A stretch of DNA of 64,000 bases from an uncultured Candidatus Rokubacteria bacterium (GCA_963708025.1 CAVPSB010000012.1:352001-416000); one strand, 5' to 3'; shown: positions 5,108-50,538, counted from the stretch's first letter. Made by a program: numbers and translations. The notes: generated by a model not told the origin, from the letters alone.

Positions 5108-5170
5108 GGTGGAGGGGTGCGGGGCCAAAGGCCGAAGGCCGTCGAAAAGCCCGCCGCTGCGCCCCCCCGC
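5108..5170 (+). repeat. Intergenic palindrome carrying the CCAAAGGCCGAAGGCCGTC module (shared with repeat family A)
   Basis: GGCC-GAA-GGCC at 5130-5140 between G-rich and C-rich arms. Confidence 0.7.
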
Positions 5171-44138: not shown

Positions 44139-45266
44139 ATGACGACCGCCGGCCCCAATTCCGGCCTCGAGGACGTTGTCGTCTCCACCTCCGAGATCTG
44201 CTTCATCGACGGGGATCGAGGGCGCCTGCTCTACCGCGGCTACGACATCCACGACCTGGTGGCCCAGTCGACGTTCGAGGAGACGGTATACCTCCTGTGG
44301 CACGGCCGGCTCCCGAAGCGGGAGGAGCTGGAACGGTTCCGGAAGGCCCTCACGACCCAGCGACGGCTCCCGCCCAAGGTGCTGGCGCTCCTCAAGAGCT
44401 TCCCGAAGAAGGCCGACCCGATGGACGTCGTCCGGACGGCGGTGTCGGCCCTGGGGCTCCACGATTCCGACAGTGCGGACAACTCCCGGGAGGCCAACCT
44501 CCGCAAGGCGATCCGCATCCAGGCGCAGATCCCCACCGTCGTCGCCGCCTGGGCCCGCATCCGGAAGGGCCGGCCGCCGGTGGCGCCGAACGCCCGGCTC
44601 AGCCTGGCCGCCAACTTCCTGTACATGCTCTTCGGCAAGAAGCCGAGCGACCTGGCCGCCAAGGCCATGGACACGGCGCTGATCCTGCACGCGGACCACG
44701 AACTGAACGCCTCGACCTTCGCGGCCCGGGTCACGGTGGCGACCCTGTCGGACATCTACTCGGGCATCGTCTCCGGGATCGGCGCCCTGAAGGGTCCGCT
44801 CCACGGCGGCGCCAACGTGGGCGTCATCCGGATGCTGCTGGAGATCGGGGAGATCGACCGCGCGGAGGCCTGGATCAAGAGCGCCCTGGCCCAGAAGAAG
44901 CGCATCATGGGCTTCGGGCACCGGGTCTACCACACGGAGGACCCGCGGGCCACGCACCTGCGGCGGCTGTCCGAGGCCCTCGGCCGCGAGGCCGGCGACC
45001 TCCGTTGGTACGAGATGTCGCGGATCGTCGAGCGGGTGGTCAAGGAGCAGAAGGGGCTGAACCCCAACGTCAACTTCTACTCGGGCTCGACGTACTACTC
45101 GATGGGGATCGACCCCGACCTCTACACCCCGATCTTCGTTGTCTCGCGAGTGTCGGGCTGGACAGCCCACATCCTCGAGCAGCAGTCGAACAACCGCCTC
45201 ATCCGGCCGCGGGCCGAGTACATGGGCCCGCGGCAGGCGAGTTACGTCTCGCTCGACCGGCGCTGA
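44139..45266 (+). CDS. gltA: Citrate (or 2-methylcitrate) synthase; catalytic Asp position reads Asn
   Basis: GLEDVV, LLYRGY, HADHELNASTF, GPLHGGAN, MGFGHRVY, PNVNFYSG, NRLIRP. Confidence 0.9.
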   Translation: MTTAGPNSGLEDVVVSTSEICFIDGDRGRLLYRGYDIHDLVAQSTFEETVYLLWHGRLPKREELERFRKALTTQRRLPPKVLALLKSFPKKADPMDVVRTAVSALGLHDSDSADNSREANLRKAIRIQAQIPTVVAAWARIRKGRPPVAPNARLSLAANFLYMLFGKKPSDLAAKAMDTALILHADHELNASTFAARVTVATLSDIYSGIVSGIGALKGPLHGGANVGVIRMLLEIGEIDRAEAWIKSALAQKKRIMGFGHRVYHTEDPRATHLRRLSEALGREAGDLRWYEMSRIVERVVKEQKGLNPNVNFYSGSTYYSMGIDPDLYTPIFVVSRVSGWTAHILEQQSNNRLIRPRAEYMGPRQASYVSLDRR

Positions 45267-45413
45267 CGCGCGCGGTCGGTGCTTCCGGCTGCGCGACCCG
45301 CGCTGACATCATCGGAGCTTCCGCGCCCCCGTCGGGGAAAACCCCGCTGGCAGCGGCGGCTGCCCGGCTCTATGATCCCCGGTGACAAAATCCCCGAGAG
45401 GAGAGGTTTTTCC

Positions 45414-46463
45414 ATGCGACGACTCCTGATGGCGGTGGGTCTGATCGCCCTGGCGGCGGCCCCCGCTTGGGCCGACGCGGTGATCGAGCGATACTCGCGG
45501 AGCGACGGCTTCGCGGGCATGGGCGCGTTCGAGAACACGACCATCCAGACGACGGCGGCGACGGCGCAGCGCGAGGAGAGCCACCTGAAGTTCACCGGCG
45601 GCTTCATGAGCGCCGTCCAGAAGATGGCCGGGATCGGCGGGTCGATCCGGATCACCCGGCTGGACCGCGACCTGGTCTGGACCCTCGATCCGGAGAAGAA
45701 GACGTACACCGAGAGTCCGCTGACGGCCCGGGGCGAGCGCGAGCGTCCGAGCCCGACCCAGCCCCGGCCCGGCGACCAGCGCCCGAAGGACAAGGGCGAG
45801 CCGTCGGACGTGGTGATCACCCGGAACGAGTTCAAGGTCGAGAAGACCGGCGCCAGCAAGGCGATCAACGGGTTCCCGTGCGACGAGTACCTGATGACGT
45901 GGCTCGTGGAGACGAAGAACACGAAGACGGGCGAGACCGGCAAGAGCCTGATGACCAACCGGCTGTGGACCACGACGGAGACGCCGGAGATCCGGGCGGT
46001 CCAGGCCGAGGAGCAGACGTATGGCCGGGCGTATCTGAAGAAGATCGGCATGGACGTCTCGCCGGCCGAGGCGCAGAAGTTCCTGGCCGGCCTGCGCGGG
46101 GTCGGCGAGGAGGAGCAGCAGAAGGCGCTGGCCAAGCTGGGCGGGGAGCTGTCCAAGATTCACGGCTACACGATCGTGACCGACCTGGCCTGGACGGGCG
46201 AGGGGAGCGGCGGCGAGGCCAAGGAGGGCGGTGCGCCGCGGAGCGGGGGCGGCCAGCCGGGCATGGGCGAGCTGATGGGCCAGCTCGGCAAGCTCCTCGG
46301 CGGCGGGGGCCAGAAGAAGAGCGGCTCGGAGCCGGCGGCCTCGGGGGGCGAGGAGAAGAAAGGGGCGCTCTTCAGCCTCTACTCCGAGGTGAAGAGCATC
46401 CGGACCCTGCCGGCCGACCCGACCCGGTTCGAGGTGCCGGCCGGCTTCACCCTCAAGAAGTGA
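45414..46463 (+). CDS. Exported hypothetical protein (DUF4412-like)
   Basis: Signal peptide ..AWA-D, ITRLDRDLVWTLDP.KKTY, KTG.SK.INGFPC.EY, FEVPAGF. Confidence 0.75.
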   Translation: MRRLLMAVGLIALAAAPAWADAVIERYSRSDGFAGMGAFENTTIQTTAATAQREESHLKFTGGFMSAVQKMAGIGGSIRITRLDRDLVWTLDPEKKTYTESPLTARGERERPSPTQPRPGDQRPKDKGEPSDVVITRNEFKVEKTGASKAINGFPCDEYLMTWLVETKNTKTGETGKSLMTNRLWTTTETPEIRAVQAEEQTYGRAYLKKIGMDVSPAEAQKFLAGLRGVGEEEQQKALAKLGGELSKIHGYTIVTDLAWTGEGSGGEAKEGGAPRSGGGQPGMGELMGQLGKLLGGGGQKKSGSEPAASGGEEKKGALFSLYSEVKSIRTLPADPTRFEVPAGFTLKK

Positions 46464-46516
46464 GATGAACGCGAGGGGCGCGTTCCGCCGACCACGTCCC
46501 GCGTCGCGCTTGCGGG

Positions 46517-46592
46517 GCGCCCCCCCTCCCCCCGCCACAGGCCGAAGGCCGTCCGATCGGTGGGGAGGGGTCGGGGGTGGGGGTGGATCCAA
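46517..46592 (+). repeat. Repeat family A copy with GGCCGAAGGCC module, ending just before the dapF ATG
   Basis: CCCCCCCTCCCCCCGCCACAGGCCGAAGGCCGTCC...GGTGGGGAGGGG. Confidence 0.8.
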
Positions 46593-47471
46593 ATGACCCG
46601 GTTCACCAAGGGCCACGGCCTCGGCAACGACTACCTGGTCATGGCCGAGGGCGACCTCGATTTCCCGCTGGCGCCCGCCGCGATCCGCTGGATCTGCCAC
46701 CGCAACTGGGGCGTGGGGTCGGACGGCATCCTCCTGCGGACCCACTCGGCCGCCGCCGACGTCGGCCTCCGCATCTTCAACCCGGATGGGAGCGAGGCGG
46801 AGAAGTCCGGCAATGGCCTCCGCATCTTCGCCAAGTACATGTGGGAGCGCGGCGCCCTCCGGAAGTCGCCCATGCGCATCGAGACCAAGGGCGGTCTGGT
46901 CGAGGCGGTGTGCCACCTGAGCGGGGAGTCGGTCACCGAGGTGACGGTCGAGATGGGCCGGGCCACCTTCCTGGCCCCCGAGATCCCGATGCACGGGCCC
47001 GAGCGCGAGGTGGTGGCGGTGCCGCTCCAGGTCGGCGAGCGGTTCTTCACGGTGACCTGCGTCCAGGTCGGGAACCCGCACTGCGTGGTGTTCACCGATC
47101 GGCTCGACGAGGCCGAGGTCCGCGTGTGGGGGCCGCGGATCGAGACGCATCCGAGCTTCCCCAACCGCATCAACGTCCAGTTCGCCCGCGTCCTCGCGCG
47201 GGACCGCATCGAGATCCGGATCTGGGAGCGGGGGGCCGGCTACACGCTGGCCTCCGGCTCCTCGTCGTGCGCGGTCGCGGCCGCCGCCGTCCGGAACGGA
47301 CTCACCGACGGCCGGATGACTCTCCTCATGCCGGGAGGGGAGCTGGGGCTCGAGGTGCGGCCCGACTGGTCGATCCGGCTGCGCGGCCCGGTCGCCGAGG
47401 TCTGTGAGGGCGCCCTGGCACCCGACCTGCTCGACAGCCTCCGCCGGAAGGCCCCGCTGCCCTTCGAGTGA
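46593..47471 (+). CDS. dapF: Diaminopimelate epimerase, serine-pair variant
   Basis: FTKGHGLGNDY, GVGSDG, IFNPDGSEAEKSGNG, GNPHCV, INVQF, WERGAGYTLASGSSSCA. Confidence 0.9.
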   Translation: MTRFTKGHGLGNDYLVMAEGDLDFPLAPAAIRWICHRNWGVGSDGILLRTHSAAADVGLRIFNPDGSEAEKSGNGLRIFAKYMWERGALRKSPMRIETKGGLVEAVCHLSGESVTEVTVEMGRATFLAPEIPMHGPEREVVAVPLQVGERFFTVTCVQVGNPHCVVFTDRLDEAEVRVWGPRIETHPSFPNRINVQFARVLARDRIEIRIWERGAGYTLASGSSSCAVAAAAVRNGLTDGRMTLLMPGGELGLEVRPDWSIRLRGPVAEVCEGALAPDLLDSLRRKAPLPFE

Positions 47472-47573
47472 GAGCGTGTGAAGGAACGGATTCTCCGACT
47501 CCCCCTCCCCCCGGGTCAAAGGCCGAAGGCCGTCCAACAATCGGGGAGGGGGGGTGGGCGGGAGGTCCCGAAC
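47469..47573 (+). repeat. Repeat family A copy between convergent dapF and sthA
   Basis: TGAGAGCGTGTGAAGG...GGCCGAAGGCC...GGGCGGGAGGTCCCGAA. Confidence 0.85.
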
Positions 47574-47578
47574 TGTGG

Positions 47579-49012
47579 CTAGGTCCGGGTGGCCGGCGCC
47601 GGGGACTCGCCGGCCTTGAGCCGGGCGAGGTTCTGGAGCCCGTTGTAGGCGGCGTACTTGTAAGCTTCGCCGAGGGTCGGGTAGTTGAAGACGGTCTGGA
47701 TGAAGAAGTCCAGCGTGCCGCCGAGCTGCAGACAGCACTGGCCGACGTGGACCAGCTCGGAGGCGTTCTCGCCGATGACGTGCACGCCCAGGAGCCGCTG
47801 GTCCTCCGGCGAGAAGATCAGCTTGAACTCGCCGCCGAGATCGCCGATGATTTGGCCCCGCGCGTTGTCGGCGTAGAAGGCCCGGCCGACGCAGTAGGTC
47901 AGGTTCTTCTGCCGGCAAGTCTCCTCCGTCTCCCCGGCCATGGCCACCTCGGGAATGGTGTAGACCGCGAGCGGGAGCACCGGCGAGACCCGCGTCTTGT
48001 ACTTGAGGTCGAAGGCGTGGCACATGGCCACCCGGGCCTGCTCCATCGAGACCGCCGCCAGCGCCGGGAAGCCGATGACGTCGCCGGCCGCGTAGACGTG
48101 CGGCACCTCGGTCTGGTAGTGCTCGTTCACCTTCAGGAGCCCCCGGGCGCCGGCGGTGAGGCCAGCCCTCTCCAGCGCCAGGCCGTCGGTGTTGCTCAGG
48201 CGGCCCGTCGCCATCAGGACCTTGTCCACCTCCAGTCGCTCACCGGTGGAGAGGGTCAGGCGCACCGAGTCCGTCAGGAGCTCGTACCGCTCCGCGTTGA
48301 CGCCGAGCCGCATGCGGACACCAACGCGCTCCATCTGCTCGCGCAGGCGGGTCGAGATCTCCTCGTCGAGGAACGGCAGGATCCTCTCCCCTTTCCCGAA
48401 CAGCGTGAGCGCGATCCCGAGCGCGGCGAAGATCCCCGCGTACTCGCAGCCAATCACGCCGGTGCCGACCACCGCCAGGCTCCGGGGCAGCCGGTCCATC
48501 TGGAGGATCGTGTCGCTGTCCAGGATGAGCCGGCCGTCGAACGGGATGTCCGGCGCGCGGAAGGGGCGGGAGCCGGTCGCGATCAGGATGAAGCGGCCCC
48601 GGAGCAGACGGTCCGGCGCGCCCTCTTGAGAGACCCGGATGGTGTGCGGGTCCTCGAAGCGGCCGAGCCCGTGGGCGAGCGTGACCTTGTGTCGCTCCAG
48701 GTTCTCGGCCACCTTGGCGCGAAGGGCGGCCACCACCTCCTCTTTCCGGAACATGAAGTCCCGGACGTTGAGGTCCGGCTTCACGGTGTAGTCGACGCCG
48801 TAGAGCCCCCGGGTGCCCAGCCCCGAGAAGTAGAGGGCCGTCTCCCGCAGCGTCTTGGACGGGATGGTGCCGGTGTTGATCCCGGTCCCGCCGACGTAGG
48901 GCTCGCGCTCGATCACGGCCACGCGATTGCCGAAGTAGGCGGCCTGGGCCGCGCCCTTCTCGCCAGCGGGACCGGCGCCGAGGATCACCAGGTCGTACTG
49001 TTCGATGCTCAC
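47579..49012 (-). CDS. sthA: Soluble pyridine nucleotide transhydrogenase
   Basis: GAGPAG, GTIPSKTLRE, GTGVIGCEYA, GDVIGFPALA, VFNYPTLGEAYK. Confidence 0.88.
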   Translation of the reverse strand: MSIEQYDLVILGAGPAGEKGAAQAAYFGNRVAVIEREPYVGGTGINTGTIPSKTLRETALYFSGLGTRGLYGVDYTVKPDLNVRDFMFRKEEVVAALRAKVAENLERHKVTLAHGLGRFEDPHTIRVSQEGAPDRLLRGRFILIATGSRPFRAPDIPFDGRLILDSDTILQMDRLPRSLAVVGTGVIGCEYAGIFAALGIALTLFGKGERILPFLDEEISTRLREQMERVGVRMRLGVNAERYELLTDSVRLTLSTGERLEVDKVLMATGRLSNTDGLALERAGLTAGARGLLKVNEHYQTEVPHVYAAGDVIGFPALAAVSMEQARVAMCHAFDLKYKTRVSPVLPLAVYTIPEVAMAGETEETCRQKNLTYCVGRAFYADNARGQIIGDLGGEFKLIFSPEDQRLLGVHVIGENASELVHVGQCCLQLGGTLDFFIQTVFNYPTLGEAYKYAAYNGLQNLARLKAGESPAPATRT

Positions 49013-49094
49013 CGCATCCGGAGGCATTCCAGCTGAATCCTTTCCTTGCTTCCTCGAAGCGCCGAAGCCACGACGCTCATCGGCCCCGCCCGCG

Positions 49095-49412
49095 TCATCC
49101 GCCGCTGACGGCGGCCAGGATCCACACCTCGGCCCCATCCGGTAGCGGCGTGGCCAGGCCCCCGGTCAGGCGGATGCTCTCGGTCTCCACGAACACGTTG
49201 ACGTGCGGCCGGACCTCGCCCTGCTCGGTGAGCACCCGATCCCGGAGACCGGGACAGGTTGCCCACAGCGCCTCGAGGGCTGCCGCGACGGTCGGGGTCG
49301 GGGCCTGCACCTCCACCCGGCTCCGGCCGCCGGCGAGCCCCTGCAGCGGGGCCGGCAGGTGCACGCGGACCGGTCGGGCGGGGGGGCCGGAAGGAATCGT
49401 GGGTCGGCTCAC
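49095..49412 (-). CDS. MoaD/ThiS ubiquitin-like protein
   Basis: VRVHLP..L, TV..AL..L, RPHVNVFV, C-terminal AVSGG. Confidence 0.88.
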   Translation of the reverse strand: MSRPTIPSGPPARPVRVHLPAPLQGLAGGRSRVEVQAPTPTVAAALEALWATCPGLRDRVLTEQGEVRPHVNVFVETESIRLTGGLATPLPDGAEVWILAAVSGG

Positions 49413-49416
49413 GCGG

Positions 49417-50538
49417 TCATCCCACGACCGCGGTCTTGACGCTCACGATCGAGGGCAAGCCGTCGGCCAGCAGCCGCCACGAGCTTCCCCCGTCGCGGGA
49501 GCCCCACAGCTTGCCGTTGCGGGTCCCGACGTAGACGCCGGCCGGGTCGAGGGTGTCGGTGGCCAGCGCGTCCCGCAGCACGGGGTCGAACACGCCCTTC
49601 TGCGGCAGGCCGCGGGTCAGCGCCTGCCAGGAGCGGCCGCCGTTCCGGGTCCGGTACACCCGCAGCTTCCCGCCGGGGGGGCAGCGGAACTGGTCGGACT
49701 CGAGCGGCACGATGTAGACGGTGTCCGGGTCGTGCGGGTGGATCGCCATCGCGAAGCCGAAGTCCGACGGCACGCCGTGGGCCATGTCCTGCCAGGACTC
49801 GGCGGCGTCGTCCGAGCGGTAGAGCCCCCAGTGGTTTTGTAGATATAGCCGCTCCGGGTGCGCGGGGTGGTGCACGACCTTGTGCACGCACTGGCCGAAC
49901 TCCGGGTGCTTGTCGGGGAGGAACTCCGCCCGGATCCCCTTGTTGCGGGCTCGCCACGTGCGGCCGCCGTCGTCGGTCCGGTACAGACCGCCCGTCGAGA
50001 TGGCGATCCACATCCGATCCGGGCGGCTCGGATCCGGCAGGATGGTGTGGAGACAGAGCCCGCCGCCGCCGGGGGCCCAGTTGGCCCGGTGCGGATGATC
50101 GAGGAGGCCGCGGACCGGCGCCCAGCTCTCGCCCCCGTCGGTGGAGGCGAACAGCGCGGCGGGCTCGACGCCGCAGTAGAGGGTCTCCGGCTCCTCCGCC
50201 CGGCCGGGACGGATCTGCCAGATCTGCCGGAGCGAGAGACCGGACTCGGCGGGAAACCGCACCGCGCCCTGAGGGTCGTCCGTCCACGTCCGCCCGAAGT
50301 CGTCGCTCCGGTGGAGCGTGGCGCCCCAGTGCATGCTGGAGGCGCCGGCCCAGAGGCGCCGGCGACCCTGCCGGCCGTCCCAGGCGAGCGCGTACACCGC
50401 GTGGCCGGGGAAGTGCGGCCCCCCGACGTCCCAGCGGGCGCGGCCTCCACCGGCGCGGAAGAGGAACGCGCCCTTCAGCGTGCCGACCAGGACGAGCACG
50501 TCGCCGCGCTTCGGCCGGACCTGTCGCGTCGTCACCAT
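49417..50538 (-). CDS. BNR/Asp-box beta-propeller (sialidase-like) protein
   Basis: Repeated S/T.D.G.TW Asp boxes; GGLCLH, GQCVHK, QNHWG. Confidence 0.88.
   Translation of the reverse strand: MVTTRQVRPKRGDVLVLVGTLKGAFLFRAGGGRARWDVGGPHFPGHAVYALAWDGRQGRRRLWAGASSMHWGATLHRSDDFGRTWTDDPQGAVRFPAESGLSLRQIWQIRPGRAEEPETLYCGVEPAALFASTDGGESWAPVRGLLDHPHRANWAPGGGGLCLHTILPDPSRPDRMWIAISTGGLYRTDDGGRTWRARNKGIRAEFLPDKHPEFGQCVHKVVHHPAHPERLYLQNHWGLYRSDDAAESWQDMAHGVPSDFGFAMAIHPHDPDTVYIVPLESDQFRCPPGGKLRVYRTRNGGRSWQALTRGLPQKGVFDPVLRDALATDTLDPAGVYVGTRNGKLWGSRDGGSSWRLLADGLPSIVSVKTAVVG

Follow-up and report, generated by a model that had tools for sequence, protein, structure and literature searches.

A dapF gene in a 64,000-nucleotide stretch of DNA from an uncultured Candidatus Rokubacteria bacterium (GCA_963708025.1, CAVPSB010000012.1:352001-416000; in the following the window) carries serines at both positions of the catalytic cysteine pair of canonical diaminopimelate epimerase. 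The gene very probably encodes the one working diaminopimelate (DAP) epimerase of the organism, an enzyme of the Ser/Ser type that turns LL-DAP into meso-DAP. We infer this activity for the window protein itself, whereas the epimerase activity of Ser/Ser DapFs in print is that of other members. Serine-pair DapF is a published enzyme type, and the window gene is a further, ordinary member of it.

The gene and its serine pair

The coding sequence at 46593..47471 (+) comprises 292 codons and a TGA stop, and its translation has no internal stops. An in-frame GTG at 46560 would lengthen the protein by 11 residues. Yet the ATG at 46593 was chosen as the likely start because the homologues are 292 aa long and can be aligned from residue 1. 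The protein belongs to the DapF family over its full length by both family models: it matched TIGR00652 with 241.9 bits (cut-off 114.65), residues 3-275 covering profile positions 2-268 of 270, and PF01678 with 180.6 bits (cut-off 34.7) in two domains. Its top named database matches were annotated as 'diaminopimelate epimerase' and came from Candidatus Rokubacteria / Methylomirabilota MAGs.

The gene is preceded by those for a type II citrate synthase (44139-45266, +) and a 394-aa protein without a family match (45279-46463, +), and followed by those for a Si-specific transhydrogenase (47579-49138, -), a SAMP/MoaD-like protein (49095-49412, -) and a glycosylhydrolase-like protein (49417-50538, -). 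There was no DAP-pathway gene among these neighbours (44139-50538), thus dapF stands alone. A REP-like intergenic element lies on both sides of the gene at about 46515-46590 and 47495-47565, with further copies near 5129, 35355, 50602 (-) and 63830 (-). It is built of a C-rich arm CCCCCTCCCCCC, a core AGGCCGAAGGCCGTCC and a G-rich arm GGGGAGGGG. With at most one mismatch allowed, the window contained six copies and shuffled sequences none; the entire 8.17-Mb genome holds 574.

The first serine, Ser72 (codon TCC, 46806..46808, +), is located in the motif EAEKSGNG at the site of the first catalytic cysteine (Cys75 of Anabaena DapF), and the second, Ser221 (codon TCC, 47253..47255, +), in TLASGSSSCA at the site of the second (Cys224). 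A phmmer alignment with the solved DapFs 9mro, 8qzy and 2otn placed Ser72 opposite the cysteine of 'emCGNG' and Ser221 opposite that of 'tlaCGtGaCA'. The alignment, together with the TIGR00652 match, bears out the preliminary description, which had proposed a DapF with both catalytic cysteines replaced by serine and had suggested this comparison; its coordinates and residue numbers were right. Thus the window protein has Ser72 and Ser221 in place of the Cys/Cys acid-base pair at the helix N-termini. The missing cysteine pair bears on the canonical DapF subtype only; Ser/Ser DapFs are now recognised in print.

The serines were common to the relatives. Among the best 120 database homologues (68-100% identity, query included) 119 were Ser/Ser and one was Ala/Ser. 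All 29 loci from related Rokubacteria/Methylomirabilota genomes (L003-L031) were Ser/Ser with an identical EAEKSGNGL, and each of the 41 genomes searched from the organism's own family and order, its own and the unpublished genome G038 included, had a DapF match. None of the 85 full-length Ser/Ser representatives deviated at either residue. On the nucleotide level the serine codons varied: codon 72 was TCC in 21 and TCG in nine of the 30 loci of the organism and its relatives, codon 221 was TCG in 15, TCC in 14 and TCA in one. Pairwise dN/dS between the window gene and its relatives had a median of 0.17 and a range of 0.12-0.45 in 28 of 29 pairs; the remaining pair was left out because of an in-frame TGA in the aligned stretch.

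That the serine pair stems from faulty sequencing or assembly, or from a pseudogene in decay, is therefore improbable in the extreme. The assembly, a bin of the metagenome type, is 8.18% contaminated, and nothing else in favour of an artefact was found. On the other hand, the reading frame is intact across 292 codons, the serines recur in 119 of the 120 nearest homologues and at all 29 loci of relatives, and their codons differ synonymously under low dN/dS. The intact frame, the conserved serines and the dN/dS values rule out error and decay, in line with the earlier judgement that independent sequencing errors were unlikely.

The serine pair is accompanied by other changes. A comparison of 85 Ser/Ser with 34 Cys/Cys sequences yielded eight further columns that separated the two types at the thresholds used. 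Four of them are near the active site. Lys71 (AAG, 46803..46805, +) is Lys in 79% of the Ser/Ser and Met in 91% of the Cys/Cys sequences; Ile78 (ATC, 46824..46826, +) is Ile in 94% and Cys in 88%, respectively. Gln196 (CAG, 47178..47180, +), two residues past the DAP-binding Asn194, is Gln in 93% of the Ser/Ser and Glu in 88% of the Cys/Cys set, and Ser224 (TCG, 47262..47264, +) is Ser in 92% of the former and Gly in 100% of the latter. The other separating columns were I210/V, M246/L, V267/A and a gap column at position 114.

Two of these positions have described counterparts in Anabaena DapF. According to PMC12039745, Met74, which aligns with Lys71, is part of a Pro-Glu-Met loop that curves round the substrate, and the backbone NH of Gly227, which aligns with Ser224, bonds the sulfur of the catalytic Cys224. 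The exchanges of Met for Lys71, Glu for Gln196 and Gly for Ser224 add a lysine, remove a carboxylate and add a hydroxyl, and would make the site more electropositive and supply it with more hydrogen-bond donors. In such a site the effective pKa of a serine's hydroxyl group could be lower, and the hydroxyl might then act as base or acid. Judged from the covariation in the alignment, the changes at positions 71, 196 and 224 may thus make the serine hydroxyl usable in catalysis. In canonical family members a Cys-to-Ser mutation 'hinders catalysis', as stated in PMC11602996 and PMC12039745, and hence the activity of Ser/Ser enzymes would depend on compensating changes.

Substrate pocket, pathway and fusions

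The AlphaFold2 model of the window protein, computed from an 85-sequence alignment, had a pLDDT of 96.7 and a pTM of 0.93. The model and the Foldseek matches show two similar alpha/beta domains, each with a central helix directed by its N-terminus toward the active site. S72 and S221 are located immediately before the helices 73-85 and 222-234, a placement at the helix N-terminus that is also described for the catalytic cysteines of DapF in PMC12039745. The top Foldseek match was 9mro_A with TM scores of 0.87/0.91 at 37% identity, and ranks 1-26 consisted of DapF structures and the O-ureidoserine racemase 7vdy. The best DapF matches (ranks 1-20) had TM scores of 0.79-0.91, the actinobacterial DapFs (ranks 23-26) 0.72-0.78 and 6vck_A 0.73-0.76. 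A solved structure of a natural Ser/Ser DapF was found neither by sequence (17 distinct sequences) nor by Foldseek (top identity 37%).

In Anabaena DapF, contacts to DAP are made by Asn13, Asn66, Gly76, Asn77, Asn164, Asn197, Glu215, Arg216, Gly225 and Thr226 (PMC12039745). The phmmer alignment gave N12, N63, G73, N74, N161, N194, E212, R213, G222 and S223 as the counterparts in the same order. The first nine were conserved across the 85 Ser/Ser sequences as well as the 34 Cys/Cys ones; position 223 was not on the list of conserved columns. There, the serine of the window protein keeps the hydroxyl of Thr226. The window protein thus possesses the DAP-binding residues of the family and matches canonical DapF in fold and substrate pocket. 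By analogy, Asn63, Asn161, Asn194, Glu212 and Arg213 would bind DAP at its distal end. Backbone groups of Gly73, Asn74, Gly222 and Ser223 would hold its proximal carboxylate, and Asn12 its proximal amine.

The genome of the organism (8.17 Mb) is 99.67% complete and 8.18% contaminated. The preliminary description had recommended a check for a Cys/Cys dapF elsewhere in the genome. A TIGR00652 search of all 49 contigs returned one DapF-family match, the window gene, and no hidden canonical dapF. The other genes of the pathway were present on contig C18, with dapL at 612.7 bits (TIGR03540, cut-off 593.25), dapB at 305.5 bits (cut-off 122), dapA at 374.9 bits (cut-off 206) and lysA at 493.1 bits (cut-off 297.9). 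The dapL gene, of the TIGR03540 type, lies at C18:5672-6814 (L032:5660-6832, -) in a dapL-dapB-dapA-lysA cluster. The plant-type DapL model (TIGR03542) was rejected for this genome: it reached 175.6 bits, under its cut-off, on the same gene that scored 612.7 bits as TIGR03540-type DapL. A second LysA-like gene at C49:131545-132768 (L033:7546-8769, -) had 265.8 bits against the cut-off of 297.9.

Because of the contamination of 8.18%, contig C18 with the dapL-lysA cluster and contig C12 with the window might derive from different cells. Four good relatives argue against that worry, since they too have DapL, MurE and a single Ser/Ser DapF; their DapL is of the plant type (TIGR03542, over cut-off) in place of the TIGR03540 type. 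MurE was found in all five genomes searched, that is the organism's own and the four relatives, and the MurE of the organism has the DNPR motif, which is typical of DAP-adding MurE. Three of the relatives (G010, G011, G036) had LysA homologues under the cut-off only, with 255-260 bits versus 297.9. These sub-cut-off homologues may be divergent LysA or another decarboxylase.

A bypass by Ddh could make DapF dispensable. There was no Ddh match over cut-off in any of the five genomes, the best reaching 22 bits over about 40-70 residues, and such a bypass was rejected for these genomes. In the pathway that we propose, DapL would make LL-DAP and the Ser/Ser DapF would convert it to meso-DAP, which would then feed LysA for lysine and MurE for peptidoglycan.

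Gene fusions connect the Ser/Ser domain to the same two enzymes. We surveyed the 120 best homologues of 512-2000 aa; since the query was Ser/Ser, this list favours the Ser/Ser type. LysA-DapF fusions made up 91 of them (90 Ser/Ser, one Thr/Ser) and DapF-MurE fusions 23, all Ser/Ser, while six had other partners and were likewise all Ser/Ser. In the examples tested, the fusion partners scored over the LysA, MurE and Alr cut-offs. Other partners were seen in P0335 (1345 aa), P0205 and P0254, P0139, and P0197; they were a PAS/GAF/histidine-kinase sensor, alanine racemase in two domain orders, a gamma-glutamyl cyclotransferase-like domain and a GNAT acetyltransferase.

If the serines marked a changed chemistry, the window protein could be a DapF-fold enzyme shifted to another substrate or reaction, a racemase, dehydratase or isomerase like HisR, DcsC or PhzF. 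Indeed, the family includes the histidine racemase HisR and the O-ureidoserine racemase 7vdy. Furthermore, the Ser/Ser type occurs next to a Cys/Cys DapF in five of 15 genomes and occupies its own side of the tree (see below). Yet every residue that contacts DAP is retained, the protein is the only DapF homologue in genomes with DapL-made LL-DAP, LysA and MurE, and 113 of the best 120 long homologues are Ser/Ser fusions with LysA or MurE. In addition, the type is reported as DapF enzymes in PMC13728532. We consider a shifted substrate improbable; the 'isomerase with a different substrate' offered by the preliminary description is disfavoured by the kept DAP contacts, the sole DapF in a DapL-pathway genome and the LysA and MurE fusions.

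A catalytically dead DapF might instead be kept for a non-enzymatic role, e.g. binding of RppH as in E. coli and P. aeruginosa. The slowing of canonical members by Cys-to-Ser mutation and the moonlighting DapF-RppH interaction reported in PMC13728532 are compatible with such a role. However, all 85 diverse members compared have both serines, the substrate pocket is conserved in full, fusions to both meso-DAP-using enzymes are common, and dN/dS is 0.17. Moreover, with a sole DapF-family match and no Ddh, the search of the genome found no other route to meso-DAP. A dead protein is thus very improbable. Taken together, the sole DapF, the presence of DapL, LysA and MurE without Ddh, the kept DAP contacts and the fusions indicate that the window gene most likely encodes a working epimerase.

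Distribution of the serine and cysteine types

The preliminary description suggested that serine-pair DapF may be rare, which did not hold. Among the best 150 representatives of 50%-identity clusters 100 were Ser/Ser, 37 Cys/Cys and 13 partial or mixed; the latter include Thr/Cys, Cys/Ser, Ser/Thr and Arg/Ser pairs as well as two rows with poorly aligned C-termini. A profile-derived scan of species-representative genomes, one genome per species, matched at least 600 stretches, and at least 592 of these loci encode relatives. The 80 loci among the matches listed were all Ser/Ser, in a set selected for serine because one of the two patterns contains it. By their record titles, the matches listed were from Methylomirabilota, Dadabacteria, Thermodesulfobacteriota, Aquificota (Sulfurihydrogenibium), Nitrospira, Armatimonadota, Chloroflexota, Myxococcota, Bacteroidota (Tangfeifania diversioriginum DSM 27063, Draconibacterium, Paludibacter), Bacillota (Clostridium sp. 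LS), Verrucomicrobiota, Planctomycetota, Acidobacteriota and Gammaproteobacteria. Another scan, in which the query was a Ser/Ser sequence from cyanobacteria, added Desulfobacterales, Anaerolineae, Bdellovibrionota, Lentisphaerae and Gloeomargarita.

Desulfobacterales, Anaerolineae, Thermodesulfobacteriota and Clostridium are largely anaerobic. Because the Ser/Ser type is found in these groups, oxygen tolerance can hardly be the whole reason for the exchange, and the oxidation resistance proposed in the preliminary description is unlikely to account for the serine pair by itself.

A FastTree phylogeny of 145 rows, which included the catalytic columns and gives a rough picture, was divided by one branch (SH-like support 99). 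On one side were 99 of the 101 Ser/Ser rows, the window protein among them, and four mixed rows; on the opposite side was every one of the 39 Cys/Cys rows, together with two Ser/Ser rows (P0185, P0196) and a single Cys/Ser row. These two Ser/Ser proteins and the Cys/Ser protein on the Cys/Cys side may be independent replacements. Odd catalytic pairs or positions were noted for P0185, P0196, P0255, P0178, P0186, P0125 and one Ala/Ser protein among P0002-P0120. The Thr/Cys, Ser/Thr, Arg/Ser and Ala/Ser variants were on the Ser/Ser side of the tree.

We examined 15 genomes of other phyla with a Ser/Ser DapF. It was the sole DapF-family match in ten of them and accompanied by a Cys/Cys copy in five. 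The coexistence in five of the 15, and likewise in two cyanobacteria, may mean that the two types are not fully equivalent.

Within the organism's own phylum we searched 121 genomes that were at least 90% complete, a count that takes in the unpublished genomes G038, G089, G113 and G131. The window query had a match of at least 53% identity in 103 of them, only matches of at most 40% identity in 13 and no match in five. Of the 13 genomes with low-identity matches, the seven that were read all had Cys/Cys. The second DapF copy of G134 was Cys/Cys, as was that of G024, which lies on a 3-kb contig. Four families of the phylum with small genomes (1.7-3.5 Mb) had only a Cys/Cys DapF with the motif RGVDETLACGTG (G056-G062, G064, G080, G090, G095, G124). 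The existence of such Cys/Cys-only families places the switch of DapF type inside one class. Sister lineages with either type as their only DapF fit an equivalent function.

Among the cyanobacteria, only four of 151 genomes had the Ser/Ser type. It was the only match to the query in G147 and G269, and lay beside a Cys/Cys copy in the 7-Mb genomes G182 and G194. A TIGR00652 search found a single DapF-family gene in G147 and in the Gloeomargaritales-related genomes G148-G150. By this family model the Ser/Ser enzyme was the sole match in four of four Gloeomargaritales-type cyanobacteria, one of them a complete 3.16-Mb chromosome. Most cyanobacteria with a match (143 of 147) had only sequences of at most 44% identity to the Ser/Ser query, the eight best of which were read and were Cys/Cys.

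These data allow a broader reading, which we put forward tentatively and hold to be possible rather than probable. Instead of a rare isozyme held in reserve against oxidative stress, the Ser/Ser enzyme might be an old, major DapF lineage. Entire orders and phyla, some of them regarded as strict anaerobes, might depend on it alone for their flux to meso-DAP. Within phyla it might repeatedly have displaced the Cys/Cys type or have been displaced by it, and its chemistry might rest on fixed Lys71, Ile78, Gln196 and Ser224, which would enable a serine hydroxyl to take up an alpha-proton. If this were true, and absent from Lamer et al. 2025, it would be a modest addition, and the Rokubacteria enzyme would be a clean sole-copy test case.

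Comparison with known DAP epimerases

DapF is an antibiotic target and is inhibited by cysteine-directed compounds. A serine hydroxyl in the role of the thiolate, abstracting an alpha-proton without a cofactor, is chemically notable. Yet the replacement of thiolate by serine has been in print since 2025, and therefore the window gene adds no new principle. Its contribution is context: a serine-pair enzyme is the only DapF in a Rokubacteria genome that makes LL-DAP via DapL, and this kind of DapF is widespread in numerous phyla, frequently occurs as a fusion with LysA or MurE, and alternates in one phylum with the cysteine type. For annotation it follows that Ser/Ser dapF genes should not be flagged as inactive, and for work on the mechanism the data help in the choice of a sole-copy enzyme.

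Ser/Ser DapFs with two catalytic serines and the same fold are described by Lamer et al., J Mol Biol 437(21):169375 (2025), as cited in PMC13728532 (Proteins 2026). This bears out the remark in the preliminary description that serine-pair DapFs had been reported. Our literature searches returned no primary paper on a natural Ser/Ser DapF other than Lamer et al. 2025, which we know through the citing article PMC13728532. The window protein resembles the enzymes of Lamer et al. in its two catalytic-site serines and in its DapF fold. PMC13728532, with reference to Lamer et al. 2025, further states that Anabaena sp. YBS01 possesses two DapFs, one of the Cys/Cys and the other of the Ser/Ser type, and that a Ser-to-Cys replacement inactivates the latter. 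The cyanobacterial genomes G182 and G194 fit the description of this two-copy state. Their Ser/Ser copies are about 50% identical to the window protein and share its motifs in the form EAEKSGNGLRIF and TLASGSSSSA, and the motif of their Cys/Cys copy matches that of the solved Anabaena DapF. An Anabaena record was absent from the 80 loci listed in the scan with the cyanobacterial Ser/Ser query, where Gloeomargarita and other phyla were present. In contrast to the second copy of Anabaena YBS01, the window Ser/Ser protein is the sole DapF, as in ten of the 15 other genomes, and its host belongs to the Rokubacteria/Methylomirabilota.

The canonical Cys/Cys DapFs of H. influenzae (1bwz/1gqz), Anabaena (9mro), P. 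aeruginosa (8qzy), E. coli (4ijz) and A. thaliana (3ejx) are 31-37% identical to the window protein. They have the family models, fold, length and DAP-binding residues in common with it. The difference lies in the exchange of Cys75/Cys224 (Anabaena numbering) for Ser72/Ser221 and in the changes of Met to Lys71, Cys to Ile78, Glu to Gln196 and Gly to Ser224.

HisR/CntK, DcsC (7vdy) and PhzF share the two-domain fold and a cofactor-independent chemistry at a helix-dipole site. PhzF matched the window protein at 14-16% identity only (Foldseek). HisR and DcsC have kept the Cys/Cys pair and altered their side-chain pockets, whereas the window protein has kept the DAP pocket and changed the catalytic pair.

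Finally, the C73S and C217S mutants of H. influenzae DapF (PDB 2q9h, 2q9j) have serine at one catalytic site and the DapF fold. These are single laboratory changes in a Cys/Cys background, chosen because they slow catalysis. The window protein, on the other hand, represents a natural lineage with both serines and the signature changes, held under purifying selection.
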